Source: Chamberlinius hualienensis
Lineage: Eukaryota
Direction of reading: 5' to 3'
Assembly (NCBI GenBank): GCA_054772095.1
Contig: BAAGAE010000030.1
Coordinates: forward strand, 87,335 to 151,334
Length of the DNA stretch: 64,000 nt
A model generated the notes under the pieces. It did not search any database. It had not been told where the DNA came from and saw only the letters and a program-made list of their open reading frames with translations. Below are positions 1,527 to 58,278 of this stretch, piece after piece (the stretch's first letter is position 1; each line of letters starts with the position of its first letter). The position numbers and the translations under genes are program-made.

Positions 1527-1546
1527 CTCTCTCTCTCTCTCTCTCT
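1527..1546. repeat. (CT)10 microsatellite immediately followed by a CRE palindrome
   Basis: Direct reading: ctctctctctctctctctct followed by gacgtca. Confidence 0.95.
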
Positions 1547-1553
1547 GACGTCA
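1546..1553. promoter_or_regulatory. Perfect CRE palindrome TGACGTCA
   Basis: Direct reading. It abuts the (CT)10 repeat. Confidence 0.5.
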
Positions 1554-2259
1554 TTATACGACATCAATATTTAGCCTTTGTTAAATTTGAAAAGTAATTG
1601 AATAATTATTATTGGTCAGTTATTACATGACTTTTTATTGATATATTTTTTTGCTACAGTTTGTGGTAATGATCAAATTGTTATAAACTTTACATGATAC
1701 AAGTAGGTGTGACTTAAGCATATGTGTGTTTGTGTCGGCAAAACAGAAAGGAAAGGGGTGTTTGGGGTGGTAGAGGGAGGAGAACGTCACTGTTATGTGT
1801 TTATAGTATGTAATTTTGTTTTTCACCTGTTGTTACATAGTTTTTCTATACTTTTTCCCCTCCCAGCATAAATACTGTGTTTATTCTGTGTCGCTCTGTG
1901 GCCCCTCATTATTTCCAATTAAAGGCCTCCGCGTCTCAAAATGGCGGGTTGTTTAAAGGTGAAAAGAGCGCGAAAAAGGAAAAAGTGGGAGTGGTGGGGG
2001 ATTGAGTATATGTTGGCATCGATTATGGCTGCCCTCGCTACAAATATATAGGGTCTCGGCAGGGGATTGTTAAGCCTATAATTTGACAAATGAAAACGCC
2101 TACACTTCATAATTTTCCATTTTTTTCCATCCTTCGTACTATCTCCCACAATCACTCGGGGGGCTATTTTACCTTACAGGAAAATGTCTTATCAAAATAC
2201 CATGGTCTATCTTTTTTTTTAATATGTGGTGGTGTAAATTGCAAGTTGCAGATGCAACA

Positions 2260-2267
2260 TGACGTCA
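2260..2267. promoter_or_regulatory. Perfect CRE palindrome TGACGTCA (aTGACGTCAt)
   Basis: Direct reading. Confidence 0.5.
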
Positions 2268-4623
2268 TCAATTTGTAATGAGCATGTGTATGGTGTGTTT
2301 AGCCGTTTTCCATAATGTCTTAGTATACACGTATGAAGCTCACTAGACGTGTAATTGCAAATTTATTACCCGGTAAATTGAATGAGTTAATTAGCAGACG
2401 ATGTTAATAATGATCCGCCACGTATTTTATGTCTTTACATGTGGGGGTTATAAACTATAGCAAAGGGGTTGATTGGTGGAGGTGTTTAGCAGGGCATTGT
2501 TATTTCTTTTAAGTATACGAAACCTGCTGTAAATCATTCTTATAAATACATTATTAGGAAGAATAAATGGTCCAACTAAAACGTGTACAGTATTAACATT
2601 GCAACACAAATAAAAAAACAAATTGGATATACAGTATAAACGACTCATGCGCAGAAGTGCTGTCTAGTCGTATGACGTAGTGCGTATTGTTAGTTCAGCT
2701 GGCTTTATAAAAGAAACCAACGTGGCTATGTTACTCTTCGCAACTTGTGTTTTGAATATATTGTAATTAAGCAATATAGCTGCGAATTTGTTATGCTGAT
2801 ATACATTTCGAGAATTATTTATTTTATGGTACGGTGGTATCAAATCTATTTATCCGAAATTTGCAGTTGAGCAAACACTGTTTTGAAAGCAGGTTCGTAT
2901 ATGTAAGATACAATTTTAATGGCTGCGCAAATTGTTTACATTTCTCTCTTTTTTGATGAAACACTGTTAATGTTAGCACCGAACTTACAACACACTTTTA
3001 AGAAATAGCAAGGAAGTTAATCATCGTTAATTACGTCATCGATAGCATCTGGTTTTTTCAAAGGCATAAATTGACGTGCAAAATTTGAAGGTGGATCGAT
3101 AAGTAGCAAAACGAAGAATGGGATTTGTAGCGATTTAGGGTGTAGAAAAAAATTAGCTGAAACTGTTAGCAAGATTTAATTATATACAAGGTGATTAATG
3201 ATCAACTTGTCAAATTAAACTCTTTGCATCCGGTCTGTATAGAGGGAAATATTAAGGTGTCAGAATAATTTTTATATAATTATGAACCTTACAGAAGCTA
3301 CTCGGAAGGGCTACATGTCGGTGTTTATTTGGGATATTGTAACGTATGTTAAATTTTCAAATTTGTAGCAGTTTTAAATGTTATACAAAATTGTTTTTAA
3401 AATTAAATTAGCGTTTGATATCTTATGCTATTAGAGGCTTCTAAATTATCTCGGTGACCATGAGTTTCTATAATACAGTAGGTCTCGTGTATTTGGTCAT
3501 GAATCGCTCTGTGTTAAAATTTTGATGTAAAATGTTTGTGTGTGGGCAAATGCGGCGTAATTATAGCGTGTAATTGCACTAAAACTGCATTCTACTCTCT
3601 CTATAATAAAAAGTGGCAATAAACAAAAGACAAATTTTTTTATGTGGATTAAAAAAAAAATATAAATGGCAATTTGCTTTGGTGTTTTTTAGTTGTGCTT
3701 GAGCGGCTTCTGTTACTTGGGCGTCAAAATGTGATAACGGTTTTTTTTTTTTGGAGTATTATTTAGTTTTTTTTTTGTTTAAACGCACTGTAAAGTTTTT
3801 TAATGCTCGGTTGGATTTTACAGAAATTTAATATTATTAATTTTTTAAAAGTTGTTTTCATTATAGCTTGAATTAGTTATTAGTGTATTCAGTTGCAAAC
3901 TGCAGCCGAACAAGCGACACCTGCTTTTACGAATACAAATCTGCAATGCAAATTAATTTCAAAATATAAATTACGGGGATGTGAAGTCATGCCAACTCGA
4001 CGAGTTAATTTGCGTATACGTGAAACTATTTTATTTAATCTATCTCTTCCCTCGAGGCTTCCGTAATTAAAAGTTTATGTCGGACTGCGGTTTTTTTACT
4101 CAACGGTTGTTAGAAACCGTCGCCATTTTAAGTTAACAAGCAAAATACTATGTCTGACGGATGCGGAAATGAGTACAAAAGTAAGAATCAAATTGCGCGT
4201 TATTAGAAAATTAATTTTCAAAAATTGCCTCAGCCGAGAAAAATTCTGTAATTATTAGCTTAAATGTTAATTCAGCCGTACAGATATTTGTTTACAATTT
4301 GGGATCTTCATTTCACGCTGGTGATCCGATACCAATGTACTGTAATTATTTTTGTTTTTGCGTCCAGTAAATGAAGTGCTAATATGATCATTGTGTGTTT
4401 TAATGTGCGTGTGGTCTGCGTATAAATAAATGGGAGTGTCGTTTGGATGTGTTAATAAAAGCAAAAGCTGTAGCAAATTAATGACGCTTTAATAATTAAT
4501 GGATAATTAACATAGACCGCTAATGGACGTTGCTGATATGCAGTAAATTATCCATATTATATCTTTAAAATTTGTAATTACAAGCCAAAAAAAATTTTAT
4601 GTTTGAAGTTTGCTGTATGTTTA

Positions 4624-4661
4624 CAGGGTGATTCTTGGCCTCATTTTTTCATATAACCCTG
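4624..4661. mobile_element. 38-bp mini-element or excision footprint of the same CAGGGTG family (CAGGGTGATTCTTGGCC...ATAACCCTG) flanked by TA
   Basis: TA|CAGGGTGATT...AACCCTG|TA. The left terminus shares CAGGGTGATTC-T-GCC with the element at 21047. Confidence 0.3.
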
Positions 4662-6766
4662 TATTATAGAAAAATTGAATTTCGATTAAAACTTTTGATT
4701 CGAGTGCGGGGAAGTGTAACCCAGACAGTCTCCTAGCGTAAAAATGTTCAAATTGAAATGCAAACAATATAATTGGGTGGAGGTATCAGATATAATTAAA
4801 ATAATTACAACAATTTTTTTTTTCTCTCTCTTTTCCAATGAGTGGTCGTTATGTAGTTAACCTAATGCTATTTATGCGGTTCTTTCTCTTTTAAATAATT
4901 TTTGTTATCAATTTGCTTCAATTATCTCTGCAGAGGGCTCTTTCATCTATTCCCCCCCTCCCCCAACTCCCTCGTCTCCTCGTTAAAACCAGTTTATATA
5001 CACGTATAAAAGTCACTTGTCCCTCTAATTATCATTCTAATCGTTTTTGTCTTTTACCACCACCTCAATTGTTATGACTATTGTTGCTGTTGTACTTGTT
5101 GTCGTGATGTTTTTTAATGATTATTTTGTTATTGTGGGTGGTTGGTTGGTTGGTAGATGATTTAATTTGATGGGGTGAAGGGTGGAGAGGAAGGAAGGCC
5201 GCCTCGTAAATTAGTTACAAGTTTTTTTTATCATTTTGTTTTTGTTTTTATTATTATTTTTTGTTGTTTGGGCGTTGTACTTGGCTTTCTGACGCCAGTG
5301 TTATGCCCCTTGTTCGACTGATATGACACTTATTTTGGGCTCATCTTTTTTATTTTATCGGTTTCGCATTAATTTTAAAGACATTAAACGATGATAACGA
5401 CGTTTTCAGATATCTTTATTATTATTATTATTTAGATTATTTCGCCACTCGTTTTGGTTTTTTTTTAGACTCTCTCTTGACTCATTTATTAGCTGTATAT
5501 ATACACAGTATGTTTTTAACCGTCCGGAATATAAATGTTGGTTATCTTAGCTATAATTTTTTTTTTGAACTTTTAATTATCAAGATATTTTTTTTTGATT
5601 ATTATTATTACGAATATACAGAGAAAAGAGAGAGGGGAAATTTAAAAAAAATAGTAGTTTGGCCTCTGTAAATTGATATCTTAACATGACAACTTGTTTA
5701 TACAAAACATTATAAATTGACATCAAGATTAATGAGTATCGTTTTTTTATTGATGGTTTGTAGTAGAAAGAAAAATGTTACTTTTTTTTTTATTTTTTAA
5801 ATTGAATGATTGAATTGCTAGATTTTGTTATGTTAATGAAAAGTCATTCAAATTTTCTGTTTCCTTGAACATATCAATTGAACTCTAGAGAAACGACGAG
5901 GCTAAAATCGATGAACATCTCATTTTCATTCACTGAAAAAGACTACAATCGCTGTTTAATATTAAACGAAATTACTGTATATTACGAAAAATGGAGGTGC
6001 CGTAATTTGTTTCGTTAAAAAAATACTGAAGAATTAGTTTTAAGTGGCACGTAGGACGTTGAGACGATTTATGATGATTTTTAAAAGTGGTATTATATTT
6101 TAGCTTTTTGAAGTTGATTTAGCTCGACTGTGGTTTTCCATATAAACTCATTCGCGCTGCTGGCGTTCAACTTAATGACGGGGACGGAAAAAAAATAAAT
6201 TTTAAACATCTGTTGTCGTTTGTGTTGTTTTATTACTATAATTATGATCATCACACCACCATTTATAATTTTTTATTATTTTTTTACGTCTGCTGTTGTG
6301 GTATTGTTATAATAGATGCTTTTACTTTTTTTTTTTAAATATACATTTATTTTATTTTATTATTACAATTCAGTATTGAGTCGAGGGGAGTGCCCCCTGG
6401 CGAGCGATTAAATGGGTGGTTGAGTGAAGCTGTTATTATTATTAGCAGTGTTATTATGTTCATTTAAAAGTCGTGGGTTTCGTTTATTATCCTTTAATGT
6501 TGCTTTACCATATTTCCCACGCGCCTTCCTGTCTTTATATGTACGTATGGCGGTGTCACGTGATATGTACGGTTACGCGCCGTCATCACTTAACGCGGGA
6601 AATTAATTCCCACGCATAGGAAATGGATTGTCGATTACGATTGTTGTTGTGATGTAGCGTGCGTTTTCTGCTATTTGTCTATCAGATATTGCATTGTTTT
6701 AGTCTTCTACTCCCTCCTTGACATACGCCCGACGTAATGTTACCGCAAAAGGTGTTTGTCTGTTTA

Positions 6767-6776
6767 GTGACGTCAC
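6767..6776. promoter_or_regulatory. Extended CRE palindrome GTGACGTCAC
   Basis: Direct reading. Confidence 0.5.
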
Positions 6777-9102
6777 TATTCCAGTTGAATTGTTTTGTAG
6801 ATGGTGGAAAATTGGGTTGGCGTGACTGCAAGTGATCCATCATTTCTCAAGCGTCACTAATAAGTGACGGTTGTTAATTTGAAGCGGATAAAAGTGCGGA
6901 CGCAGAGAGTGAAAGTAAAAAATAAGCGTATCGTTTTTATCGTGGAAATTAACTCTTTCGTTTAGTATGCAAATTTAGTTAATTGATGTCGCATTTTGTA
7001 TTTTGCCAAACACTTCATTTGCATATCTTCACTTTTTTTAATTGGCTTATTAATTTCCATTTGGCGAATTATACCTGCTATTACGCCGTCTGCCACTTGG
7101 CAAGATAATCAAAAATGGCAGAAGTACTTATTTGATGGCCTCGCATTTAGCAACTCGTATTAGGTTTTTATTTAGTTAGTCATTTTGAAAACTTTTAATA
7201 AGGGACGTGTCGATTTTAATAATTATTAGAGGGTAATTAAGTGGCGCTGTATAGGTACTTATATATTCGGTTTTAAAAAAAATCTTCATTCGTATGCCAA
7301 TTAATTTGGTATCTATTAAAGGACAGCTGATTAAAATTAAAGTGGATGGTTGTAAAACGTTTGAACTATTTCAATTCTGTTTTTTCTTAATTGATCGGTA
7401 TGATTTTCCACATAAATTTTCGCATTTCACTTAACCGGTCTTTCACCTGATGTAATTACAGAATTTGGAATTCTTAGAATGTTCAAGTTTTTTTTTTATC
7501 AATTATTTTCAATTTAACAATTTTTTTATTTAATATTTATTTTGTTGTAGATTTGAAGTTAAATTTCGCATTTAAAGCATTGATATAATTAATCCTAATT
7601 CTTTTTTTTAAATTTTTTTAACGATTTAATTTCCACACATGAATTTATACTTCACATGGTCTACGAGATTTAGAATGTGGGATTTTTTTTGGTTACGCAT
7701 CCTAGGGTTAAACTTTCCTAACGACTTCATCATTAATAAGGGTTAGAAAAACAGCGGTTTCACCATGAACACTCGTGTTAGAAGAAAATTCCATTTAGGT
7801 GAAATGTCTGAGGGTAAACTGCATAATATTAAGCTGCTTGGGAAATTATTGTTGTGGCTAATACCCTGGCAGTATGACGCCTTATTAGAAAGCTTATTAT
7901 TTTTCTGGCTGTTTTCGTAAAATCAATTTGCATGGAAATGTTTCTCAACTTAATTTTTTATTTTTTTTTGCTGTGCCAAACTTCATTTGTACGAACTACG
8001 GTATGCGTACAAATTAGTATCCACTCTTTGAAGTATCACAATTAATATCAACTATTAAATTAGAAGGAAAATCAAATTTGTTAGTTGATATTTTCGTTGC
8101 TATAATGAACGTTAATGAATGCGAATGCTTTAACTGGGATATTAACTGGGTTTAAGAGACTCGACAGTGTATATCATCGAAGAGAATATAACCTTCAGTC
8201 ATTAATCTTTTTTAAATGGAGGATTTATTTTTGAAGGATATATTGTAAGATAATTTAGCAAGTATTAGCCAAATGATCTACAGATTAACAATCATACAAT
8301 GAAATTGGCGTGTATAGAACAAAGCATGATGAAATGTCATTGAAATGCAGCGCTTCTTTTTACCTGGCATTACGCCACTTGTAGAGTTACTTACTCAAGT
8401 GAATAGGTGTCCTTGTGCCAGCCAGATTGCTGCTGCGTCGTATTGTTATGGTCACTTAACACGCGCAACTTAAAGTTGATATTATCACGAAAGAAAGTAG
8501 AAAAAAATACATTCCTAGTCTCAACAGTGCCATATTGTTTGAGCGTTTATCAAACATGGCGACGACTTTTATAGTTGTTTAAGTAGTCAGCTACATCTTT
8601 CTGCTCCCCTTTTTCCACTGCTCAAAATAATCTTAAAAGATATGCGAGAGTTGATTCATTATCGCGAAAGCGTCTAGTATTTTTTTTTTACTGTTTTCTT
8701 CTGCATTTACGTAATTTATTAGCAGATAGATTTTTCAAGTCTTGTGTTGGTTGTCGTAGTTGTTGGGCTTTCCTAATTTTAACTTGGTTTAATTTTAGCT
8801 TGTTCAAAAAGCTGTCGAAAAATTCTCCACAGTCTTCCCATTAACAACCATGTTGTCAACGGGTAAAATTTGTGTCTCGTAAATTTTTAAAAAGCCGCAA
8901 GCATTCTTCCGGAAGAAGCGTTTTTTATTACCAAAATTGTTAAGAATAGTTCCATCAACAACTAAAGCCAAACAGTTTTTTTTTTTGTTTTGAAATTTTT
9001 TTTGAAAATATTTGTTTAGTGTTGTCAAATGTTTATGCTTTTTTTTTTGTGGGTGTGAAAATTGATGGCGATAATAATAATACCGTAATTGTGTTTTTAC
9101 AG

Positions 9103-9234
9103 TTGGATGCAAATACTCAGGAGGACGTAGGTGGCGCTAGTGACGACAACGCTAGAACCGAGGACGAAATCTGCACGTTAAACGCTTTCAACGGGCCTCA
9201 GCTTAGCGATTCCAGGGAACGACTCAGTGACGAA
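9103..9234 (+). CDS. AUTS2: AUTS2/fibrosin-family protein, internal coding exon (phase 0-0), peptide LDANTQEDVGGASDDNARTEDEICTLNAFNGPQLSDSRERLSDE
   Basis: Acceptor ttttacag ends at 9102 and donor GTAAGT sits at 9235. The open frame ends ...SRERLSDE, matching human AUTS2 ...SSSRERLSDSS. Confidence 0.7.
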
Positions 9235-9569
9235 GTAAGTACATCGTGATTGCGTAAATTATTACCCAAACCACTCAATCTTTTACCGCTTTTTTTTCTT
9301 TCCCGCATTTATCTCTCGTTAATTACAAACTAAATACACACATTTGTAATTGATTGCGTTCTCAAATAAGATTATCGATCAACACCTTAATTAACGCCGG
9401 GTTAAGTTATCACTTTGCAGCTTCCTTTACTTTTGCGTGTATTAACGTCAACTGTGACGTCCGAAGGAACGCCATTTAGCACTTGTTTAACTTTACGCCG
9501 TGTACACATTTGCCATTATTAATGATTTTAACACCTTTGAATTCTAATTAATTTTATTTGAAAATTTAG

Positions 9570-9605
9570 GTAAGCAGTCGGCCCAGCTCAGGACGTGGTT
9601 ACATC
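9570..9605 (+). CDS. AUTS2: AUTS2-family micro-exon (36 nt), peptide VSSRPSSGRGYI
   Basis: Acceptor tttag ends at 9569 and donor gtaagt sits at 9606. In-frame peptide matches human AUTS2 SSAPSSLGTGYF, which sits directly between the RERLSD and CDSDSD segments. Confidence 0.65.
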
Positions 9606-9876
9606 GTAAGTGTTAAATAATTTATTAAATTTTTCTTTAAATAAATTAACCTATATTATTACTCGTTTGTTTTTAAGTTTTTTTTTTTTGTGTGTGTGAA
9701 AAATGTCGACACCAACGCCCATCACTTTTTTTCTTTCTTCGTATGTTTAGAATTTAATTTAATATCGATTTGCTGCTGTGAAAGTTGTACAATATTTTTG
9801 TTGATAAAAAAAAAAGACAGAAAATCGTGACATAAATAATGTCAAGCAAGCTGGGACCTGATTTTTTTTACATCCG

Positions 9877-9888
9877 GTGGCGCCACCT
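9877..9888. promoter_or_regulatory. 12-bp GC palindrome GGTGGCGCCACC (a CTCF-like GGTGGCGCC core on both strands)
   Basis: Direct reading. This is a rare GC-rich 12-mer in an AT-rich context. Confidence 0.4.
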
Positions 9889-11397: not shown

Positions 11398-11405
11398 TGA
11401 CGTCA
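11398..11405. promoter_or_regulatory. Perfect CRE TGACGTCA
   Basis: Direct reading. Confidence 0.5.
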
Positions 11406-12897: not shown

Positions 12898-12905
12898 TGA
12901 CGTCA
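12898..12905. promoter_or_regulatory. Perfect CRE TGACGTCA
   Basis: Direct reading. Confidence 0.5.
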
Positions 12906-13296
12906 ATTGGCGAGTCATCATTAGCAGATGTAGTTCAAATATTTTGTAATAAATCAGCGTTTGTATATTACATGGCAGAAACTTTTCGAGGTTAAGTTAC
13001 GAGAGAGGGGGAGGGGGAAATTAATTTAGAAATTCTTCAAACAGTATTCGAAGTTAATCTTTTGAAGTTTAATCTTTCTTTTCTTTTAAACTGTGTAATA
13101 GAAATACGTTTTGTTAGGTTACAGTTGTTTTGTGCCCTCTATTAAATCTCCATAGAAATTCAAATAAAAGCCCCAACGGTGGCCAAATAGATAATAAAAA
13201 CAACCACTCCTTTAAAAAATATAAACAGTATGAAAAAAAAAATTATTTTGTGTACTAAGCTGTTGTGTTATTTTAGTACAAGTCAAAGTTAACCAT

Positions 13297-14742: not shown

Positions 14743-16890
14743 ATTTTTTTTAACTTTATTTCAGTACTATAGAAAATTTAGTACGGCGAAATTTCCTTTT
14801 ATAATCTTCCGGTAACATTATATTTTCCTCATGCGTGAATTTTCATTTTTTTCTTCTTTTTGCATAATTTTGAGAAAATAAATTTGTTGTTAAAGGCAAT
14901 TACTATATTTAAATAAAACATTATAAATTTGTTAACACTTGAACTCAGAATTTTTTTTAATTTGGCAATTTTTGGATGAAACCTATTGATGGCAATTAAA
15001 ATAATTACGTGATGACCATTAAGCGTATCTTTAATGTGTCTGTGTAAACTTGTAAAGTATATCAACGACGTTAGCTATTATACTAGTATTGCTTTTCCAA
15101 TAAAAAGTATATCAAGTTTTCGATGCTTACTTTACACATATCTAAAGGACTATGATAATATACCGCTAATGGTGAAGTTTAGGTTGATTACTCTTAACAT
15201 TTTCTTAAACTAAAGCAAACAGACACAGTTTTCTTGAAGTTAAAAAGTAAAATGTCTTGGTATAAATACACATGACATGCGTATTTTCTCATCAAAATAC
15301 TGTATTTAAAAATGTGAAGGAATTTAGATAGTTTATCGATATTGAAGCTACACTATTGCGAAATATGACCTAGCCCCCCCCCCCCCTCCAGCTTTAGATC
15401 CTTGCTACGCCAATGGGCGTGCAACTACTGTATACCATTTGGAATTTTTAATACAACAAACAACTTAGCTTTCAAACAATAGTTTTCTCTGGTAGTCAAA
15501 ATAGTTAAGTTCTGAGAAAAATTGTATTATATTTTCTATATAGTACTTTCTATGAAACTAATGTAAACTTCACTTTCTAGTGTGCGGCTCTATTATCCGT
15601 TATCAGCCTAAGTTATTGATTATGGTATCTTTCCAGTCGATTTCAATATTGTCAACTCGACTTTATTTGGTGTATTGATTATCACTAGTGATATATTTCT
15701 TGTATACTTGAATGTTTCACTGTGTAACATATAACAGTACTCTACGGAATGTTGACTGTTTCGCTCCAGGTGTACGTGAAACTATTTCAGAAGAGTCGTG
15801 TGGTTAATATACAGTACAAGTATCTGATTACTAGGGTCTGGATTTTTATGATTATATCTAACTGGCATACGTTGTAGTTATATATAATTGTCTAGTCGAT
15901 TATGATAACTATTAATATATTATTGTTGTTTTTTTTTTTATATACCATTTTACAAATTCATGCCCTACTTCTAACCAATTTGTGGTGCACTTAATGCATA
16001 GTTTGAAATATTAAGAAATACGATAGGAAATGTTTTTGTTCTGTACTAAAATGTTGCAAATGTGAGAAATATGTGAAGCGATTATAATGTCGATTACTTG
16101 AAGTGCGATCTTTGTCGAGGATTAGTTTACGGGCAAAACAAAGATCACTGTAAAGTAAGTTTGAATTTGATTACTTCTAGGTAGTTTAGTATGTATTTTA
16201 ACATTGAACTAATTGGCATGACATTCATACAGACATATCATAAATTTGATTATTTTTTATTATCTAAAATAAAATCGTGTGTCAACCACGCCGTCGCAGA
16301 CGTCACACGACGTCATCTTGAAACACTTCTAACATGTAAAATTAAATAGTTATAATTGAAATATAATTATGCAACTACAATTGTTGTACCGTACAAAGTC
16401 CTTTTTTTTTTGAACAGAAAAATAGGCATGACTCGTTTTGTTGCGAATTTTGACTTATTGCGGTGATCCATAATCCTATCCTATAATAACTTGAGGCATG
16501 TCGGTAGTCGTAAATGCTCAATTTCGTCATTATTACAGATTTAACGCAGTAATTGGCCATTTTATTGCAACAAATTCACCGAATCTAGTTATAAAACGTC
16601 AAATGGCTCATCCATTTCCAATGCTGATTATTGAATAAGCAGCACTAGCACTTCATTGTTAAGTTTAACAGCCAATTCTCCGGTGCTATTAAATTTGTAT
16701 AGATTTTTATTAATGGGATCCATTGTATACTATACAAATGTTCTTACTAGGTCACCATAGAACCCAGTTGTGTTTCTCTCTATACGTAAATATTGAATAA
16801 TGATATTTAGTATTTGCATTTAGCTTTAAAATGCTGCTTGTGAAGCTAATCAATATGTTTATTGTTGTTTCCAATCGAAGCTTTTATCTC

Positions 16891-17035: not shown

Positions 17036-19029
17036 ATAATTCATGCTTTACTACTCTCTGTCTCTCTTACCAACTCCCATCAAATTTCATCTAAGGGGAA
17101 ATAAAAAGTGGGGAAGAAGAGGTTTTCCAATTTGAGAGGTGGGGGAAGTATGACAGAAATGGGAGCTCTGTTTTAGCATTTCATCGCCAGGGGGTGTGCT
17201 TTTTGCTAGGAGTAATTTGTAAGGTAGCAAGTTAGACCGCAAATGTAAAATAAATGGATGTTGCCAGAGCAAAGTGAAGGGCCGGCTTGGTTTGGTTGAT
17301 TGGTTGGTTGAACCAGATGACTAAGGGCAGATATATAAATGTGGATTGACTGTTATATCTATGTATGCAGTTTGTGTGTTTTCTCGTACACGCTAAGCTC
17401 TCGTATTACAATATAGTTGAACGTTTACACAAAAGCCAGAAAATCCCTCGTCTTTGCTCTGTAAACATATTTACTGTACAGTATATCGATTTGAGTCGGA
17501 AATATGAAACATATTGCACCGAATGTCAGGCCGGATAATGTCCACTTTATGTGTACAAACGGAAACATCTAAACAACGAGTCAAGTGGTTGCTTAGTTTT
17601 AGACTGCCAATAGTTTAGATTTTATTTTATTTATTTTTTTACAAATTCTTATTTTGTTTAAATGAATACTATGGTGGAATGGTTGTACAGTATATCTTAA
17701 ATCCTATAGAACACTTACTGTAGTTTTAGGGCATGTCCTTTTCATAACATTAATCTTTTGCGTGATTAATACGTTCTGAAATAAGGTTGAGAAATAGTAG
17801 TACGGTAGGCGTTTACTTCATGTTCTGTCTCATCCACTATATTTTTACAAGGATCAATAACCACTTAATTGTATACAATGCTTCAATTGGAAATCAAATC
17901 AAAAACATTTGCGTGAATTAGAGCCGAAAATTCTACAAGAGCATGACACAAGATGCTCAACGAAATTGTGTCAGTCATCTTTGGTTCCATATTTCGAAAG
18001 GTTTTGCGATCCTCTTTTTAAAAGATCGAAATTAATTAAAATACGAAATGGCACAGAATGATTCATGACTTACAGTAGTTGTCTTATTTATGGGGCATAT
18101 TGAGATGTCTAATTGTTTCGAATATCTAGCACAATAATAATTAATTGGTGTGTTTTTTTTTTGTTTGACTGATACTAAGTTCAAACTTTTAACTCGGGAC
18201 ATTATTACAGTGTCAATTTTTCAGCTTTTGTAATTTGACCAAAAAGACCTGTAACATTTGTGAATAACATTGGAAACCGTGTCACCACATCATAAATGAA
18301 CTGCACTTAATTTTTACATCTCTATACATTTCAACTGGTCTTGGTTTTGTCATTTATATTTGATTGAAATACATCATAAGCTATGTTAAATCTTTTATAT
18401 ATCTTAACGATTTGTTAAACTTCTTAAAATATATTAATTATAATTTGTAGCCCGAATTTAATGAGAACGTTTCTTATTGTCCTATTGTAAGAAATAGCCA
18501 TGTGTGACTAAATACTATTCATACAGTTATAGATTTCAGGGGTATAAGCGAAATGAATTTATGACATATTAGATAGCCATTTTTTGTATATTTTACACGT
18601 TAATGATCATTAAATCTGACAAAGCAATATGCATTTTTTTATATTTGCCACAAAAAAATGTAAGCGGATAACTGGTTCATTGTTGTGATCAATAGTAAAG
18701 CGCATGATACATTCATTTTCTTACGAGCACGCTTAATGTGAAAAATATCCACTTTATTAGTCATAAAAATGTGAATACTAATTTTGGGATTACTCGAACG
18801 CTACCATCAGAGTATGAAATCCGCTGTAAAAGTCATTAATAGTCTGAAGTGGCACTAGAATGATGGCTTCTTTGTAATTAAATGAAATAAACTCAATTAA
18901 TATTAGTACGTGAGTAATGAACTATAATTCGATTAGTGATGGCGTTGTAAGTGTTGCTTTCAGTTATTTATAATCACTGTATATTAATTGACTTACAGAG
19001 TTTAATTATTTTCTTTTTTTTAATTTTAG

Positions 19030-19056
19030 TGTGATAGTGAAAGTGAAGACGATCAG
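19030..19056 (+). CDS. AUTS2: AUTS2-family micro-exon (27 nt), peptide CDSESEDDQ
   Basis: Acceptor ttttag ends at 19029 and donor GTAAGT sits at 19057. Matches human AUTS2 CDSDSDQEE, and the phase is compatible with the flanking exons. Confidence 0.7.
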
Positions 19057-21012: not shown

Positions 21013-21020
21013 TGACGTCA
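21013..21020. promoter_or_regulatory. Perfect CRE TGACGTCA
   Basis: Direct reading. It lies about 25 bp upstream of the MITE insertion at 21047. Confidence 0.5.
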
Positions 21021-22473: not shown

Positions 22474-22481
22474 TGACGTCA
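22474..22481. promoter_or_regulatory. Perfect CRE TGACGTCA
   Basis: Direct reading. Confidence 0.5.
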
Positions 22482-27297: not shown

Positions 27298-27305
27298 TGA
27301 CGTCA
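27298..27305. promoter_or_regulatory. Perfect CRE TGACGTCA
   Basis: Direct reading. Confidence 0.5.
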
Positions 27306-28096: not shown

Positions 28097-28104
28097 TGAC
28101 GTCA
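28097..28104. promoter_or_regulatory. Perfect CRE TGACGTCA
   Basis: Direct reading. Confidence 0.5.
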
Positions 28105-29046: not shown

Positions 29047-29054
29047 TGACGTCA
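29047..29054. promoter_or_regulatory. Perfect CRE TGACGTCA
   Basis: Direct reading. It lies about 55 bp upstream of the transposon at 29110. Confidence 0.5.
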
Positions 29055-35236: not shown

Positions 35237-35244
35237 TGACGTCA
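35237..35244. promoter_or_regulatory. Extended CRE GTGACGTCAC
   Basis: Direct reading. Confidence 0.5.
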
Positions 35245-43746: not shown

Positions 43747-43754
43747 TGACGTCA
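43747..43754. promoter_or_regulatory. Extended CRE GTGACGTCAC
   Basis: Direct reading. Confidence 0.5.
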
Positions 43755-45071: not shown

Positions 45072-45079
45072 TGACGTCA
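45072..45079. promoter_or_regulatory. Perfect CRE aTGACGTCAt
   Basis: Direct reading. Confidence 0.5.
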
Positions 45080-46438: not shown

Positions 46439-46469
<31 letters not shown>

Positions 46470-47530: not shown

Positions 47531-47538
47531 TGACGTCA
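47531..47538. promoter_or_regulatory. Perfect CRE TGACGTCA
   Basis: Direct reading. Confidence 0.5.
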
Positions 47539-48001: not shown

Positions 48002-48019
48002 CGATAAATCGATTTATCG
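48002..48019. promoter_or_regulatory. 18-bp perfect palindrome CGATAAATCGATTTATCG (CGATA motifs on both arms)
   Basis: Direct reading. The sequence is identical to its own reverse complement. Confidence 0.4.
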
Positions 48020-48757
48020 ATCTTTTTTTCGCTCTCTCTACCTTTTGTTAGGATGGTTATAGTTTTTTATTGTTTGGTTTAATGACCCAAGTGGTAGATG
48101 ATGATGGTCATATTCACTCTTGTCAGCGGTTCGCGTGGTCGGATGTGGATAAATGCAGGAAATGAAATTAGCACACATTTTATTTTAGTAATTGAAATAG
48201 CAAAAAAAAAAAAAAACTTAGACCAACTACGCATGCGTATACTGTGCGCATGTGCGGATGGTGAAGGGATTTGTTGATTTGTAAATGTTTGCTATGTCAT
48301 AATGTTGTTGTAAACTGTTATGAAAGGACATCAAAAAAAGTTTCAAATAGCTGCGTCATCGTTTGCGAAGCAACTTCATACTTAAGATTTAAGCTGCCAT
48401 CTTGGTTTTCTTTTCTTTTTTTTTTGGTGTGTTGTTTGTCTGTTGATGTGTGGTGTATTTGATTGGATTAAAGTGTTGAGGAGAGATGTGTGGAGTATAT
48501 GGTGAGCGTGTGAAAACGAAAAAGAAATTAACAGCGCCCTCGTGTGGTGCTAAATGTGTGTGTATAAAAAGAAAATGGCTTTCCCTAAGGGAATTATATA
48601 AAGTAGCCTCAAACTCACTCTCTCATGCTACCTCGTTATTTTCCTGGGGGTTTTTTTTCTACCCTTTTCCAAATATATGGATGTCCCTCGAAATTAGATA
48701 CAGGGCGGGTTGACTGGGGTATTTTTTTAATCTACTTTGCGTTGTCATGACGTCATG

Positions 48758-48765
48758 GCATTAGT
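48758..48765. promoter_or_regulatory. Perfect CRE within the 12-bp palindrome CATGACGTCATG. It is the first of a pair 91 bp apart, with a CTCF-like GGTGGCG element between them.
   Basis: Direct reading. Confidence 0.55.
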
Positions 48766-48772
48766 AGGTGGC

Positions 48773-48788
48773 GAATGGGTGGGGTTTA
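48773..48788. promoter_or_regulatory. CTCF-like motif AGTAGGTGGCGAATGG lying between the two CREs
   Basis: Direct reading. Confidence 0.35.
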
Positions 48789-48848
48789 GGACCCTATCTA
48801 GATAAAAGGATTTCTTCCCACTTCACTCGGCTTAATTCCCTCTACTTA

Positions 48849-48856
48849 TGACGTCA
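48849..48856. promoter_or_regulatory. Perfect CRE aTGACGTCAt, second of the pair
   Basis: Direct reading. Confidence 0.55.
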
Positions 48857-49829: not shown

Positions 49830-49837
49830 TGACGTCA
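49830..49837. promoter_or_regulatory. CRE TGACGTCAC
   Basis: Direct reading. Confidence 0.5.
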
Positions 49838-50822
49838 CAACATACGTGTATTTTAAAGCTGATGATGGGAGGAAAAATGTGGAAATAAGAATGAACTAGA
49901 TGGAATAGTTCTTAAGATTTAAGACATTGAAAAAAAATATCTGTTAGATTTTAATTAGCTACTTAGGATTTTGGATAATATTAATTTTTTTCTGAATTTT
50001 TAAGTGCGTCTTCAGCTAATTAAATTGTAGTTAAATCTATCCGGATGGAATTTAATTCGAATTAAAATATCTTTTGAGATTGTAAGTGATTCTTTGTCGT
50101 TATTTTAGTGCATTTTTTAGTTTATTATTTTTGCCTGTAGTTAAAAGTTCTGTCTGTTACCATGGCGACCTTCCAAGTTCATTGGCGTCTCTTTATTCAG
50201 TTGGCTTTTAAAATATTTTTTCCACGAAATTTTCTGCCTTTTATAAGATAAACTATTAATATAAATCTGTCTCGTATTAGATTGGCGATTTAAATCTCTG
50301 TTGGCTTATTTTGAGAATGGACTTTAACTTTGTTCCTATAATTTTTTCCAGCAGATTGAAATAAAAAGTACTTAGCGTTTTATTGAGTTTGCGGCAAATT
50401 GTGGTCTTAGATCAATATTTACTAAATTGTTAGACAAGATATATGACAACTAACGCAGCAGACGACATCTTTATAAGAGTTGGATGTGGGGCGGTTGAAT
50501 ATAGGTGTATCGAAGCCATTTGTGAAATTGGTCATCATCGAAAGATGTTTATGTTTGTTTATATTGTTGTCGTCATTTCATTTGCCAACGACCATTGGAC
50601 AACAATAAAAAGAAGGGGAAAGGGTATGGGTGGTTGATCCGTAGCTTTGAATGGGTGGTTTGAGGTGGTTTATGTTTTCTTTTTTATGGTCGCCAGTTGG
50701 ACAATTACTGACCATGGCATCATCCACGACTGACCGAACTTTAATGCGGTTTTGGTTTTATATCTTTGTCTATATACAACTTTCTTATTGTATTTCGAAA
50801 AACCAAAATAAAAAAGAGAGAT

Positions 50823-50841
50823 GGGGGGGGGGGGGGGGGGG
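50823..50841. repeat. G19 homopolymer
   Basis: Direct reading. Confidence 0.9.
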
Positions 50842-51175
50842 AGAGGAAACTAACCTCCGGATGTGATATTTATTCTTTTCACATAGACACCCAAAAACAA
50901 AAACAAAATATATATATATAAATAACCTTAACGAATACATACATATCAAGTAAAGCTGGATGGCGCTGTCTATACATACAACAACAAAAAAACATACATC
51001 GACTTTTTACGACGAGCGGAAAGAGCTTTTTTACCGGAAATGATGTGACGAAGCGACTTTTCTTTTTGGCGCTGAAAGCGATTGGAGGGGGATTTGAGGG
51101 AGATTTATATCCAGAAATGCAACGAAGAGTGATTCAGGAATAAGGAGGGGGAAAAAAATTTAAAGGGATCTTATG

Positions 51176-51183
51176 TGACGTCA
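51176..51183. promoter_or_regulatory. Extended CRE GTGACGTCAC
   Basis: Direct reading. Confidence 0.5.
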
Positions 51184-51597
51184 CTTTATCATTTATTATT
51201 TTTCTTCCCCCAACTTAAAAGTTTGCTTTTATTTTTAAATGTAGTTAGTTTTGACGAGACTTTATAGCTAATTTTATATAAATTTTCATATATTGTCTGA
51301 ACATTTAACTAAAATTTGATATATTTTTGTATAGGGAAGGAAAAAACGTTTATTGTATTTTTATGTTATAAAATGAACTAAATTGGCCTTTTATATAGAA
51401 TAAGATGCTAGATAAAAACTTTTTTATTATTTTCGCCTGCATTTTTAGTTGCTGGAATTTTTTTTTAAAGTTGAGCTATTATTAAATGGAAAAAAATGTT
51501 TTATAGGTTGTTTCCATTCGCAATAACAATAATATGTAAACGTTGTATTGGTTAGCATATTTTATCATGTATTCGACTGAAATTGTTAATGCGTTTT

Positions 51598-51605
51598 TGA
51601 CGTCA
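51598..51605. promoter_or_regulatory. Perfect CRE TGACGTCA
   Basis: Direct reading. Confidence 0.5.
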
Positions 51606-54600
51606 TCAGTTTAAATTTAATATACTGTATAAAATATTTATGTTGGTTTACTCCCAAATTTCTGTAGAAATTGTTTAAAATGGATTGTAATAGATATTTT
51701 CTTGCTCTTTAAAGAATAGTAAATTAAAAGTACTAAGTTTAAATTAAGGGTATTAAATTGTTGACATTATCACATTATTAAATTAAACATTTTGATGACA
51801 CCGTGTATATAATATTATGTGTGGAATACAGCGCCATCACTTTTATCTTTTAGTTATAAATTTATTCAATGGTGCTGAAGCTAGAGCTTTTTTTTTATAC
51901 TGGATATATATATTTATATTCCCCACTCTTTTCATTCACCAGGGGGCGTTATCTGCATATTTTATTCTTTACATCCTCCCAACTAAAAAAAATACTATAT
52001 ACTTTATATACATGGAAGTAGTGATAGAAAAAGACATAAAAAGTGCGAGTATAACTGTGTATATATTGGAGAATTTTCTTTAGCGTCATTTTTATTCTGT
52101 GTTTCCTCCATCTAAACACTTAATCCCAGCCATTTTCAACACTTTCCACAGTCACCACCTTCTATAATATGGGGGTGGGTCGAGGTGAGTATGTGTGTGT
52201 CTGAGTGAGGGGTGGCATAAGCAGGGAGGAAAACGAGGGTTAAAGGATTTAGCAGTTGATTAGGAAAGTGAAGGGAAGAACATTTAAGATTTACTCGATC
52301 ATCATCATCCATTTTGAGCTTCCGTATCCATCGTTTTTTTATATACAGTATGCGAGCGTATTTTTTTCTAGCTTGATCCTTTTTTATGTTATCATCGAGC
52401 TATCTTAGAATTACTCTGTATATATTTATATGTATGTATAAAAAAAAACTTTGCCATTGTGTCGCTGTTACGATTTATATTGTCGTTTTTATATAAAGAG
52501 GATTTTAAATTTACTTGCTAGTTTATGAGCGACCCCAACCGGCTGCCATTTTAGATATTTTCTTTTACTTTCTCTCTCTGTTTCTTCGTCAATTTAATTT
52601 GAATGCAGCAGACCGTTTTCGCTGTTGTTCACTGTGGTGGGTTTATATGTTGGATGGGGAGGGGGGGGAACTGTGTAAGATGTATATAAGGGGGTGGTTC
52701 ATATTATTTTTGTGAAGATGGAAGAAAATGTACGGAAGCCACGAATGGATACATAAGATAATGTCATATTCCCTCGAGCTTTCGATGTGGGGTGGATATT
52801 TTTTTCAACAAGGACTTATGAGGCAACGTAAAAGTCAAAGGGAAATCCTTCTTATTTTTCACCCTTTCTTTCCCCCGCCACCTCATCTTCTCTTAGTCTT
52901 CCCTAGGGCGAAGGGGGAGGGGGAAATAAAGAAAAAAATAAATGGGTGCTGTATATGAAGACTTTTATTTTCTTGAAATGTGCGGTTGCTGAAATCCATC
53001 TTATTTTATGGTCTGGAAACGAAATGAAACGTGAAAGCACTCTTCCTCCTCTTTTCTATTTTTACCCCCCTCCACCGCCAACCTCACCCCTTAACAACAC
53101 TCAACCATTTTTTATAATATACTTTACCCTCACTCAGCCATCATCTTTACGCTATATTTATTCCCTTAAACAAGCTACTGAAACAATTCCGATAGATGGC
53201 GCTTCATTACAAACGCCAACTCACACTACATATACACTACTTTTTATGTTAAACTATACTAACATTATAATTATATTTTTCATCCAAACTTACTTAAACT
53301 GTTTTGTTTACATTCAACATTTCACTTAAAAATAGTTTTAAAGTATTAGTTGTCGCCATTTTGCTACATCTGCTTTTTAACGGTGGTGCAGAAACGACAG
53401 CTGAATCTTATAAAAACACATTTTCACTTTATAACAGTTAACTGAGAGGGAGTCAGTTGTAAATATAGTTCAACATTTTATATATCTACAGTATATGCAC
53501 TCGTATAAGTGTGCGGCGTTGAAATTGTACCGCAAATATAAAAAAAAAACAATTTGACGTTGGATGATAAAAAATGTGGATGTGAGTGTGTGAGAGACGA
53601 TTTCCTGTTAAAGTTTTAACTCTCATTTCAACAATAACAACACAGTGAAGAAAATATATATAAAAATGTTTAGGGAAAGCAAATATTTATAATTTATTTG
53701 ACTAAAAGTAACCTTACGTCTTCCTCCATTGACACAACCCACTTTATTTTTATTCTAAGGGGAGGTTGGGGGTGGGCCAAATGGAAATGTGATAGTTGTC
53801 GTTCATATTTTATTCAGAGACATATGTACGTGTGTATAAGAAATATAAAATACCAAATATATGTGTGTATATAGTATATATACACTATATGTGCGAGTGG
53901 GGATGGGGAGTAGGTGTTTTGTCAAATATTCTAACTTTGAAGAAAGAAAAATAAAATTGGGAGAGAGTCGGGAAAAAAATTGCATTAAAATATGATAATG
54001 CAAAATATATATATATATATATGCATATGACGTGATGCAAAGAATATAGATTGAGTTTTTTTTTTTTTGTGACATTGATATTTACATAGAAGAAAACCGA
54101 ATCCATAGAAAAATGTCATCTTTTTTTTTTCTCATCGTCAATACTAAAATTCCTTGCACCATCTTTTATTTTCGTTATCAATTTTTTTTATTTTATCGAA
54201 AATTTGGTAAAATAAAATTGGATTTTTTTTACCATATTCTTTCTACTTCTTTGAATGAAATATTTAAATAAGTTTAGTATACACGAGTACGGATCGATAA
54301 CATGTATTTACTTAACGTCAACAAATGTAGAAACTTTTTTTTTATGCAGTATATATATATTTTTAACATCGAACATAAGTTATATAATCAATTTTCCGCA
54401 CAATGCAAGCTTTCAAAGTTTTAATTAACAGTTTATACTAAATTTATATTAATGTGAGGATTGTACTGTAGTTACATTTGTTGATTTTGAAAAAAAATTT
54501 CATTTTTTTAAGAATACAGTATGTTTGCGGCTTTCAATAGAGTTTACTTTTTTGGGGGAAAAGTAATAATCTGTTCGAAATACTTTTTTTCCTGGAAATG

Positions 54601-55157
54601 AATTTTATTACTTAATAAATATGTCTAATGAATGAACCTGTCAAGAGTACAGTATATTAATTTAAAAGTATGAAGCCATCTTTTGCGATTTATCGTTTCG
54701 ATACTGCTTATATAAATTTCAATCTATTTGAAATGAATGTTTATTTACTTATTTACGCAGCACTTTTTATCTCTCACTCTCTCTATTTCTGCCTTGTTCT
54801 TTATATTTTTATTAGCGATTGAAAATCGATCGATCGTAAATTGTGTGGTGAGTAGAGTGTGAACGTGGCTTCTTTATAGGGCCAAGGGGGAAAGTAGGAG
54901 TGGAAATTGGAAAGTGTGGGGAAAACTGTTAGGTTGGTGATGGTTAGATTGAAGATGGTTGGTTGTTGGGGGGGAGTGGGGGATAGAGTGAGGGAGTAAG
55001 GCGTGTGTGTGAAAGAAGGGGGAGGGTGGCGAGAGTATGATTTATGTAGATGTTAGCAATAAAGATAAATTGCTCTCCACTATCGCATAGATTGGCTCAT
55101 AAATTCTCAGTTAACTGCTGTGTAGAGGGCGCTTCATTCATCTCGTGCGTCTGGGAG

Positions 55158-55347
55158 CCGCCATTTTCATCTCTCGTTTTTTTTTATCTCATTTTTTTTA
55201 AATACAAATATAAAGGTCGATGTTGGATGGATGAAGGTTTTTATTAGGATTTGATGCGCGATTAAAATGGAAGGAGGAGAGCTTTTATTCGTATTTGTAT
55301 ATAAATAAATAAATTACACGGTTTTTTTTAATTTATTGCATTTTTTT

Positions 55348-55389
<42 letters not shown>

Positions 55390-55471
55390 AATGTTTTGAT
55401 ACAGTTTTTGACGTTATTGTGTTTTTGTTTTGTGTACTTGATTTGTGTGTGTTGTATGGCGGCCATTTTGC
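55158..55471. promoter_or_regulatory. Pair of Pho/YY1-like sites (GCCGCCATTTTC at 55158 and GGCGGCCATTTTG at 55459) flanking the (TC)19 repeat
   Basis: Direct reading. The GA/TC repeat (a GAGA-factor-type element) sits between the two GCCAT sites. Confidence 0.4.
55349..55386. repeat. (TC)19 microsatellite
   Basis: Direct reading. Confidence 0.95.
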
Positions 55472-56689
55472 TATTAGGAGGTTTGGTTTGCTTTGGCGTT
55501 CTAGTTAATTGAGCGGTCGCACTGTTTTATGACCAATTAGGATGAAAGGCTGCCATTAACAGCGACAAAACCTCGACCATTTTTGCGCAGGCGCATTGAA
55601 GCAATTCGAGCGTGAAAATTGGCGATTTTGATACATAGCGTCAGCTAATAAATCAAAATACTTCTGGCCGAATTTTTGTCTCAAAAGAAGGAAAAGGAGA
55701 ATGTAGAAAATAATGGCGACCTGTATTTATATAACTGAAATCTATTTGTTGCATAATGCAGACGACAAGTTTGACATCTGTTCGTTTCTAAAACGCACTC
55801 TAATTAAAAAGGAATGTAATTAACTAGAAAACAAGGCTTGCGTGACCCCCCCCTCTCCCCCCATGCTGCGCATGCTCCCAAGTGTCAATTTACATAAAAC
55901 TACGAACGCCCATTGCTTCACTTCTCGTTTGTTGACACTTTTGTCAACGTTATCGAAGCGTATCGTCCCAATTGTTTTTCTTACGGCCAGTCAGTTGTAT
56001 GACGTGTTTATTATGCCGTATTTTTACGTCAGAACTGGCAAATTGTCAACGTTTTCACATCTAACATGATTGCTTTGGTCATTCTTAATTATCATTTTGA
56101 CGCTGAATGTTTTAAGCCACAAATATTAAATCGCAGTGGAGGAGGGATTAGCGTTTTGCGTTTATTGATTAGTCAAAAGAAATAAATTTTTGTCAACGTT
56201 TTATGACATTTATTTGGTGAAGCGTAAATGAAGTAGTAATAGCAGCGTCTAATTATTAATTAAGGATTTATCGGCGTTTCTACGTTGACGCTGAGCTTTT
56301 AATTGTTAATGTCGACAATTGCAAGAGCAAATAAAATCATTAATCAGCCGCTTAAAACGATTTTCCTTTTTCTATGCGTCCTCTGGCGGCAGTGTTGGTG
56401 GCTGCAAACAGCTCGTCAAGAGTCGTTTTGAGAAAAAGGGGGGGGGGGGGAGTCTAATTAAACTGTTTAATTAATCCATAGGAATTGATGGAGATGATGC
56501 TAATAAAAGGTCTTTCTCTATGGCGCGTAACTAGCAATTTTAATGAAAAGGATTAAAGCACAAGCCGTAAAAAAAAAAAAGATTGTGGCGTCCTCTGTTG
56601 ACGTTGAACTGGTGAAATGGTATAGAAACGATGAAGAGACGTTTAGGAACTAAATAAAACACGTTACTTTACTCTTGTAATTTGAAAAA

Positions 56690-56900
56690 TGGTTGACGAC
56701 GAATAGTGGGCGGTGGTATATAGTTGATGAAGAAATGTTTTTCGCGCGTCGTAAAAAACAAGATGGCGTCGATAGGAAATCGGGTCGCGACAAAAATGCA
56801 TCTCCATATTTCCACGCCACATTTTATGACTTTTATACGTCGTCGTCGAACATCGTTTAACGCTCGATTTTACACGATTTTCAACAGTCATCTCATTCCA
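56690..56900. promoter_or_regulatory. CpG-enriched segment with an AAGATGGCG (YY1-type) core, about 600 bp upstream of exon 57489. Candidate internal TSS region.
   Basis: cgcgcgtcgtaaaaaacaagatggcgtcgataggaaatcgggtcgcgac...cgtcgtcgtcgaacatcg. Confidence 0.3.
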
Positions 56901-57488
56901 TCTTTTTCTTCTAGCTATCTAACACGCATGCGTACTAAAATTTTAATATTTCTATTTACTTTTTTATTTGTTGGACGGTGGCAGCGATGATATTGAAGTT
57001 GATGGAAGTAAACGACTTTGTTTTGATTTGAAAAATAATCGAATGACAGTCAACGTCATCTATACTTCCCTTGAAGTGATTGAATTTCACTTTGACGTCT
57101 GCGTTAAAACATCCACGGATTTTCTCTTGACAACTGGCTGACAACTTCTTTCTTCCCTTTCTACTTGTTTTGATATGTGTAATCTATTAGTTTATATTGA
57201 TTACTTTGGATTCCATTGGAGTTGTATCAAATGTTGTATACTGTAGAGTTACTAATGGACTTCATGTCGAACGCTGTTTCTGCATGGCTAGGCCTAATAT
57301 TATGCGCCAATTTGGTTGTCGTTATTACTGTATATTGACCAAATTAGTTTCCATTTTACTTTTTGAATTTAGCTACTTTAAAACTTGGTGATGTGATTTT
57401 TGACAGTTTAAAATTAGTGAAAGATGTTTTTTTATTAACAACTTTATTATTTTGTATAATTATTCTAACTATCAACTTTTTTTTACAG

Positions 57489-57534
57489 GTGTCTGACACT
57501 GGGTCTGACCTTTTCACAACGGCAGCTCCAAAAC
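57489..57534 (+). CDS. AUTS2: AUTS2-family exon (46 nt, phase 0-1), peptide VSDTGSDLFTTAAPK(R)
   Basis: Acceptor ttttacag ends at 57488 and donor GTAAGT sits at 57535. Matches human KASDASSEKLFNT. The 1-nt carry-over completes CGT with the next exon, keeping the long Ser-rich frame open. Confidence 0.75.
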
Positions 57535-58270
57535 GTAAGTAACATTTTATTGTTGTTTTTTTTTAACGAATTTTATATGAACTTATACCTCATATAACTA
57601 TTTATACACTGTATAAGATCTACTCCATCTCGCTCTCTTTCTCTGTCAATTTGAGTTGTTGATGATAGCTTAAATGGTTCTGTTTTGAGATGGCGTTGCA
57701 TTCAATTAACTTGTATGTCATGAACATTGAATAGCGTTTTCTGGGGAGAGGGACAAAAAAAGTTAATGGGATGATTTCTTAAACGACGCCGTTCATAATT
57801 TTCTCGCTCGATTAGACGAGTCTAGATGTTGATGATGATGATAATGCAAAACATTTTCAACCCCTTTCTCTTTTCTTTTGAGGATCTGGATTTTTTTATT
57901 ATTATTTCCTGGAGGCATTGTTGGCGCGCGAAACCGACACTCGATTAGGCAATTTAATATTGTGAAAAATGCCCTGACATTAAATAAGATTTACGATTCA
58001 ACCAAACCCTCCTCAACTCTCGAATATTGTAGCGATTAGTTCAACCATCATTCTATAGGTATTTCTATAATTTATTACGACTGCTGTTCTAAATATACAC
58101 TATATAAGTTAGAAAATCTGCCGCTAAACAGGCGTCACTTTCCGTCTTCATTTGCACTCTGTTGCTTTTACGCACAGTTTATTTTTCTTGAAATAGAAGA
58201 AAACAAACTGTACACTTGTAGTTGTTTGCTAGAAAATCAGACAGCCTTTTTTTTTTTTTTACGTGGATCA

Positions 58271-58278
58271 TGACGTCA
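58271..58278. promoter_or_regulatory. Perfect CRE aTGACGTCAt, about 480 bp upstream of the large exon at 58755
   Basis: Direct reading. Confidence 0.5.

Follow-up and report, generated by a model that had tools for sequence, protein, structure and literature searches.

The locus considered here raises a simple question: why should one stretch of noncoding DNA contain so many exact copies of a single eight-letter regulatory word? The stretch (below, the window) is 64 kb of Chamberlinius hualienensis DNA (contig BAAGAE010000030.1 of assembly GCA_054772095.1, positions 87,335 to 151,334), which carries the 3' part of an AUTS2-family gene, and the word is the octamer TGACGTCA, which is bound by CREB/ATF proteins; an exact match to it is called a CRE (cAMP-response element) throughout. 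Pattern search located exactly 20 CREs, the first at 1546-1553 and the last at 58271-58278. A sequence-only reading of the window had put the number at about 20, where fewer than one would be expected in 64 kb, and had proposed a dinucleotide-matched shuffled control. Both of its figures stand, since 100 dinucleotide-preserving shuffles gave a mean of 0.65 copies and a maximum of 3, so that the observed number is about 30 times chance. Among Markov models of orders 1 to 5, the second-order model predicts 0.69 copies (Poisson p ~1e-22); those of orders 3, 4 and 5, which were trained on the sites themselves, predict 2.6, 4.3 and 11. The window has a GC content of 34% and a CpG observed/expected ratio of 1.05, and TGACGTCA is the top-significance word among its non-low-complexity 8-mers. 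The extended forms and additional half-sites that had been noticed earlier are also present, with five copies of ATGACGTCAT, four of GTGACGTCAC, and 162 TGACG/CGTCA half-sites where 74.8 are expected (about 2-fold), 122 of which lie outside full CREs.

The individual sites, for which no strand is assigned, are as follows, together with one pair of near-matches.

1546-1553, CRE, context cTGACGTCAt
2260-2267, CRE, 10-bp palindrome ATGACGTCAT
6768-6775, CRE, within the 14-bp perfect palindrome TAGTGACGTCACTA (6765-6778)
11398-11405, CRE, GTGACGTCAT
12898-12905, CRE, ATGACGTCAA
16299-16315, two 7/8 near-CREs (aGACGTCA, cGACGTCA), with GACGTCA at 16299-16305 and 16309-16315
21013-21020, CRE, exact match
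22474-22481, CRE, exact match
27298-27305, CRE, GTGACGTCAT
28097-28104, CRE, exact match
29047-29054, CRE, exact match
35237-35244, CRE, GTGACGTCAC
43747-43754, CRE, GTGACGTCAC, with TGACGT and ACGTCA half-sites at most 25 bp away on either side
45072-45079, CRE, ATGACGTCAT
47531-47538, CRE, exact match
48748-48755, CRE, 12-bp palindrome CATGACGTCATG; a AGGTGGCG word begins 11 bp downstream
48849-48856, CRE, ATGACGTCAT, 101 bp from the 48748 site
49830-49837, CRE, exact match
51176-51183, CRE, GTGACGTCAC
51598-51605, CRE, exact match
58271-58278, CRE, ATGACGTCAT, with the splice acceptor at 58754 about 480 bp downstream

Two tandem pairs had been singled out in the sequence-only reading. The pair at 48 kb exists, with its first member starting at 48748 rather than at 48758 and its two members 101 bp apart. 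The pair given as 16297 and 16309 does consist of two sites 10 bp apart, but these are 7/8 matches (AGACGTCA and CGACGTCA) and not full octamers.

Could the excess be a non-functional bias of word frequency in this genome, arising from mutation, repair or some other composition effect that happens to favour TGACGTCA? The even, unclustered scatter of the sites (see below) in DNA of ordinary GC content would fit such a bias. However, di- and trinucleotide composition predicts only 0.65-0.69 copies, and at a CpG ratio of 1.05 there is no CpG depletion from which the word could be escaping. Other CG-centred palindromes are near expectation: the 63 other octamers of this type total 51 against 40.5 expected, and the 16 NNACGTNN palindromes are where composition puts them, with two exceptions, TGACGTCA (20 against 0.69) and TCACGTGA (6 against 1.0). 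A CpG effect or a general palindrome bias is thereby ruled out, and methylation-related CpG retention, which had been named earlier as a possible source of a uniform density, is disfavoured within the window by the same two results. The excess is also very sharp. It is 29-fold for the perfect word, falls to 2.6-fold at one mismatch (the 24 one-mismatch words pooled total 44 against 17.2 expected) and is 1.2-fold at two, a profile that is hard to obtain from context-dependent mutation bias. Finally, the other words enriched in the same DNA are also recognisable factor consensus sequences. A neutral word bias is thus unlikely.

A second way of multiplying a factor site without selection on the word is to carry it on a dispersed repeat or on a miniature inverted-repeat transposable element (MITE), which is a known route. 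The sequence-only reading had argued that the flanks differ at every site and that the word itself is kept, and the flanks do indeed differ: an all-against-all blastn of the 20 sites with 200 bp on either side and the core masked, made within the window, returned only the pair at 48748 and 48849, whose stretches physically overlap. With both half-sites pooled, base composition is random at each position beyond 3 bp from the CRE. A repeat search of the window found low-complexity families only, an Rfam scan found no known RNA families, and the 17 open reading frames of at least 90 amino acids outside the two sense-strand coding frames gave no real Pfam match and no transposon protein remnants. 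The one observation that leans towards a repeat is a weak 30-nt family (D11) near two sites; its copies share 70-73% identity over 30 nt and lie out of register with the CREs. A repeat or MITE origin is, on these results, extremely improbable.

The word and its immediate flanks, in contrast to the more distant sequence, do carry information on what might read it. A pyrimidine occupies the outward +1 position in 31 of the 40 half-sites (chi-square p = 0.006) and an A the outward +3 position in 23 of the 40 (p = 0.004), giving a site consensus of T-N-R-TGACGTCA-Y-N-A. At nine of the sites the palindrome extends to 10 bp, and at one it spans 14 bp without a mismatch. CREB/ATF proteins usually prefer the flanks R-TGACGTCA-Y. 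The words of other basic leucine zipper (bZIP) classes are not enriched in the window: the AP-1 word TGAGTCA occurs 3 times (7.3 expected), the C/EBP word TTGCGCAA is absent (1.2 expected), as are the ATF4-type word TGACGCAA (1.8 expected) and TGACGTGG (1.2 expected), and the PAR word TTACGTAA, with 3 copies against 2.1 expected, was counted as not enriched. This supports an assignment of the putative binding sites to the CREB/ATF class and to no other bZIP class. Methylation of the central CpG blocks CREB binding. The CpG ratio of 1.05 gives no sign of historical germline methylation of the window, and the central CpG of the CREs appears not to have been eroded. The statistics would be as expected from selection for a high-affinity homodimeric bZIP site, and composition, mutation bias or repeats would not easily yield them. 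Based on the word statistics and on two published surveys discussed below (PMC551538, PMC3730098), the sites are probably genuine CREB/ATF-class binding words.

What kind of gene carries them? The earlier assignment to the AUTS2 family (AUTS2 / FBRSL1 / tay-bridge) is borne out by a match to the Pfam Auts2 domain (PF15336) at 62129-62440 on the + strand (E = 2.9e-8, 34.5 bits against a cut-off of 23). Four coding features define the layout of the gene within the window.

19028-19054, + strand, 27-nt microexon cag/TGTGATAGTGAAAGTGAAGACGATCAG/gtaag, 84-85% identical to two comparison loci (L007 and L013), with the AG/GT boundaries kept
58755-59983, + strand, large Ser/Thr/Pro/His-rich, low-complexity coding exon, with acceptor tttacag/G at 58754/58755 and an approximate 3' end
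61244-61645, + strand, conserved AUTS2-family coding exon or exons with homologue matches, the translation containing HQHQHQHTH
62108-62251, + strand, coding exon matching Pfam Auts2 (PF15336)

The window thus begins in an intron of at least 19 kb that ends at the microexon; a second intron, of 39.7 kb, separates the microexon from the 3' exons. All 20 CREs are intronic, where the sequence-only reading had placed nearly all of them in introns or upstream of exons: the first intron holds five and the second 15, and the exon-rich final 5.2 kb is free of them. Their distances to the nearest exon range from 0.5 to 39 kb, and no transcription start site was identified in the window. The microexon, in frame 1, encodes an acidic CDSESEDDQ-like peptide. 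Its counterparts were located by nucleotide comparison with a set of AUTS2-family loci that represent about nine other taxa (L001-L014, about 107 kb after redundancy was removed), at 94-120 of L007 and at about 2299-2325 of L013. In these two loci only about 2 kb separate the microexon from the next conserved exon, against 39.7 kb here, which argues that the long introns are lineage-specific.

Some further features of the gene region may be recorded here. GC skew is positive and AT skew negative on the + strand over 1-56000, with the GC skew turning negative at 32-36 kb, and the skews are gone at 56-64 kb; the prevalence of G over C and T over A across most of the window is consistent with transcription-coupled asymmetry. 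Tracts of (CT)n are strand-biased (CTCTCTCT 47, AGAGAGAG 14). Two long homopolymers, C18 (46438-46455) and G19 (50823-50841), are mutually complementary and lie 4.4 kb apart, and one C13 and one G13 are found at 15374-15386 and 56438-56450. In a C-terminal exon, poly-Ala comes after an Arg-Glu dipeptide repeat (REREREREREREREREREIEKEKEREREKERE) at 62976-63100 (+ strand), and this stretch constitutes direct-repeat family D2.

Given an AUTS2-family gene with very long introns and a word and flanks of the CREB/ATF class, the most direct proposal is a gene-specific CREB landscape, in which cAMP-, calcium- or stress-responsive enhancers in the introns would make a neuronal gene strongly CREB-dependent and the CRE density would be exceptional in the genome. 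The spacing of the sites bears on this proposal. The CREs occur at about 1 per 3 kb, homogeneously across the two introns; the coefficient of variation of the gaps is 0.92, and a Kolmogorov-Smirnov test against uniformity over 1-58.9 kb gives p = 0.40, so that the overall spacing is Poisson-like. The region from 43.7 to 51.6 kb, with 8-9 of the 20 sites, favours the proposal, but the maximum in any 8-kb span is 8 (p = 0.10), and scan statistics at 2 and 4 kb likewise detect no local clustering (p = 0.93 and 0.40). There is no rise in GC around the CREs, the GC content from ±25 to ±250 bp being that of the window average, and the CREs are no nearer to the other enriched words than are random positions. 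The scatter is homogeneous rather than that of a handful of enhancers.

The other enriched words are the second kind of evidence against a gene-specific landscape. They are distributed over the same introns, with none at 60-64 kb, and include the following.

TACWGTA, 51 against 7.7 expected, orientations equal
AGGTGGCG, 12 against 0.5 expected, 8 of the 12 extending to AGGTGGCGC
AGATGGCG, 13 against 0.85 expected
GCCATTTT, Pho/YY1-like, 25 against 6 expected, 21 on the + strand and 4 on the - strand
CGCATGCG, NRF1/Ewg-like, 7 against 0.27 expected
ATCGAT, Cut-like, 33 against 12.5 expected
CGGAAG, ETS-like, 23 against 7.7 expected
TCACGTGA, 6 against 1.0 expected
CAGCTG, 21 against 6.6 expected

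The most numerous of these, TACWGTA, is a near-palindrome (TACAGTA 25, TACTGTA 26) found from 2586 to 57332, often as TATACWGTATA; its sites have unrelated flanks, lie in both introns and are densest at 12-20 kb, and no factor for it was found in the literature. The eight AGGTGGCGC words (9129, 9881, 13301, 16894, 26646, 29420, 37588 and 46535; about 0.13 expected), six on the + strand and two on the - strand, resemble the insect CTCF core. GCCATTTT is oriented, with 21 copies against 3.8 expected on the + strand and 4 against 2.2 on the - strand, and the Pho/YY1-like word GCCAT(T/C)TT behaves similarly, 29 of its 37 sites (922-56767) being on the + (sense) strand and 8 on the - strand. The CGCATGCG words are perfect palindromes and all lie in the second intron (20323, 33727, 36218, 39957, 40327, 48230 and 56925). 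With so many such words in excess, the introns can be described as generally rich in exact factor-like consensus words, of which the CRE is the most extreme. Because several unrelated factor-like words show a similar fold excess in the same DNA, the CRE is not singled out. The CREB/ATF landscape of a neuronal gene offered by the sequence-only reading is thus upheld as to the bZIP-type word and its flanks, but the Poisson scatter and the parallel enrichment of other words give no tie to a gene-specific CREB programme, and we regard that explanation as possible but doubtful.

The same list of words is relevant to the view that the octamer is read by an agent other than CREB/ATF, either a DNA-binding or architectural protein specific to the lineage or the pre-mRNA itself. 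Because UGACGUCA is self-complementary, any two copies can pair, and such pairing could fold a long intron. All of the sites lie in transcribed introns of a + strand gene, several of the other enriched words are also palindromes or near-palindromes, and the flanks show a mild strand asymmetry (TGACGTCAT 13, ATGACGTCA 6). This asymmetry is not significant, however (Fisher p = 0.056), an 8-bp duplex is weak, and the presence of oriented, non-palindromic DNA-factor words in the same introns points to reading at the level of DNA. We also know of no precedent. Another reader of the word is therefore decidedly improbable.

Does the excess extend to related loci? The comparison loci contain mainly 3' exons and downstream genes and lack counterparts of the long introns. 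In their roughly 107 kb there is no excess of TGACGTCA (2 copies against about 1.0 expected), and the other words are not in excess either, which argues that the phenomenon is not general to arthropod DNA or to the 3' part of the locus. This result would allow a lineage-specific regulatory gain at the gene, in favour of a gene-specific landscape; without long-intron equivalents, however, these loci do not separate a property of this locus from a property of this lineage's genome. The homologues recovered by protein search are arthropod fragments, the only named one being from the stick insect Dryococelus australis. The best protein match reaches about 72-75% over the exon at 61.4 kb (88% over 35 amino acids) and the C-terminal exon has one match at 45%; the 354-amino-acid exon had no match in the protein search, a metagenome scan returned one locus at 61% identity, and look-ups of exact sequence returned no record. 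None of these searches gave DNA of the same species or of a close relative. The Dryococelus australis locus (L001, CM056997.1:86445946-86467197) has 32 TGACG/CGTCA half-sites against 16.7 expected (about 2-fold), despite a CpG observed/expected ratio of 0.52, and one full CRE, against 0.14 expected, around its AUTS2-family exon. In two metagenome contigs from JGI (L005, 9420-11090; L006, 7359-9292), the next gene downstream of the AUTS2-family gene, on the opposite strand, encodes the 20-kDa subunit of NADH-ubiquinone oxidoreductase (Pfam Oxidored_q6).

The explanation that we tentatively favour is that the CREs are bZIP-site words kept by selection within factor-word-rich noncoding DNA, as a property of the domain or of the whole genome. 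The 20 octamers would be independent instances of a high-affinity CREB/ATF-class bZIP site, placed essentially at random at about 1 per 3 kb in an arthropod AUTS2 (tay-bridge-like) gene, within its two long introns. The word itself would be kept, most likely because the binding of unmethylated DNA by a CREB/ATF-type dimer is under selection, and the CREs would be one component of noncoding DNA that is loaded with factor words, including CTCF-, Pho/YY1-, NRF1/Ewg- and Cut-like words and TACWGTA. Their density would then reflect the noncoding DNA of a chromatin domain, or of the lineage's genome, in preference to discrete gene-specific CREB enhancers. We lean to this wider scope because the scatter is even and unrelated factor words are enriched in parallel.

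Several points weigh against this explanation. For every site, selection is inferred from word statistics. An even scatter with no co-clustering with other words is unlike classical enhancers, and 20 high-affinity sites for one factor in the introns of one gene would be an unusually heavy load. In addition, no excess is seen in the approximately 107 kb that come from AUTS2-family loci of other arthropod-like taxa (2 copies, with about 1 expected), which argues that whatever keeps the CREs is not ancient at the locus, and the CRE-bearing introns are only about 2 kb long in L007 and L013.

These same observations could be taken further, to a reading that would be surprising if correct and that we consider unlikely. 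Introns of about 2 kb in other arthropods would have grown here to 20-40 kb of unique, transposon-free sequence bearing an even carpet of CREs and other exact factor words, each of independent origin. Behind this there would have to be an unrecognised process by which exact bZIP sites are created, or strongly retained, at intervals of about 3 kb across a transcribed domain, for example a domain-wide loading of CREB/ATF-2 or a chromatin-state function in place of enhancers. That a large gene should have factor sites over-represented in its regulatory DNA is of a known kind; it is the degree and the evenness that are unusual.

The importance of the result depends on its scope. If the excess is specific to the locus, few homotypic arrays of perfect CREs as extreme as that of the window would have been described, and the CREB/ATF dependence of an AUTS2-family neuronal gene would become testable in an invertebrate. 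If it is genome-wide, the lineage would be one in which an unusually large share of the noncoding DNA consists of exact bZIP, CTCF-like and Pho-like words, and this would bear on how binding-site abundance evolves between insect lineages. At present its value is that of a solid lead and not of a discovery.

Comparison with known systems helps to define what is ordinary and what is unusual about the window. Classical functional CREs are single or paired and near the promoter. The sites described here match the full palindromic CRE bound by CREB/ATF bZIP dimers in the 8-bp palindrome, the purine/pyrimidine flanks and the apparently uneroded CpG, but here 20 copies are spread over intronic DNA of about 58 kb, and no identified start site is near them. 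Classical homotypic clusters are local (hundreds of bp to a few kb) and consist of degenerate sites. The window resembles such enhancer-type clusters in having sites for one factor far above chance in one locus, and differs from them in that the CREs are exact, evenly scattered and without significant clustering. The M26/CRE recombination hotspots of fission yeast, in which Atf1-Pcr1 binds ATGACGT, have a meiotic function. These hotspots share the same core word at dispersed chromosomal positions that are not promoters, but their role is a fungal, meiotic one, and nothing in the window bears on recombination.

Amplification of factor motifs by transposons, for example by MITEs in plants (PMC5950925), likewise yields many dispersed copies of one factor word in noncoding DNA, but the CREs of the window share no flanks. 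A DamID (DNA adenine methyltransferase identification) paper on CrebB (PMC10289670) does not mention tay or AUTS2, and no report of a genome-wide excess of TGACGTCA in an insect was found in the literature. The FastCompare analysis (PMC551538) places TGACGTCA with the most conserved 8-mers of the regions upstream of genes in flies, worms and mammals. The lexicon from that work contains the CRE, CGCATGCG, ETS and E-box words, and TGACGTCA, CGCATGCG, CGGAAG and TCACGTGA are enriched here as well; however, the lexicon was defined upstream of genes and by conservation, whereas here the words fill introns and are known by their counts. Simola et al. (2013, PMC3730098) found that the abundance of CREB sites differs systematically and markedly between insect lineages. 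Their results come from position weight matrices over 2-kb promoters, in contrast to the exact octamers in introns considered here, but lineage-wise differences of this kind are what a genome-wide peculiarity of this species would resemble.

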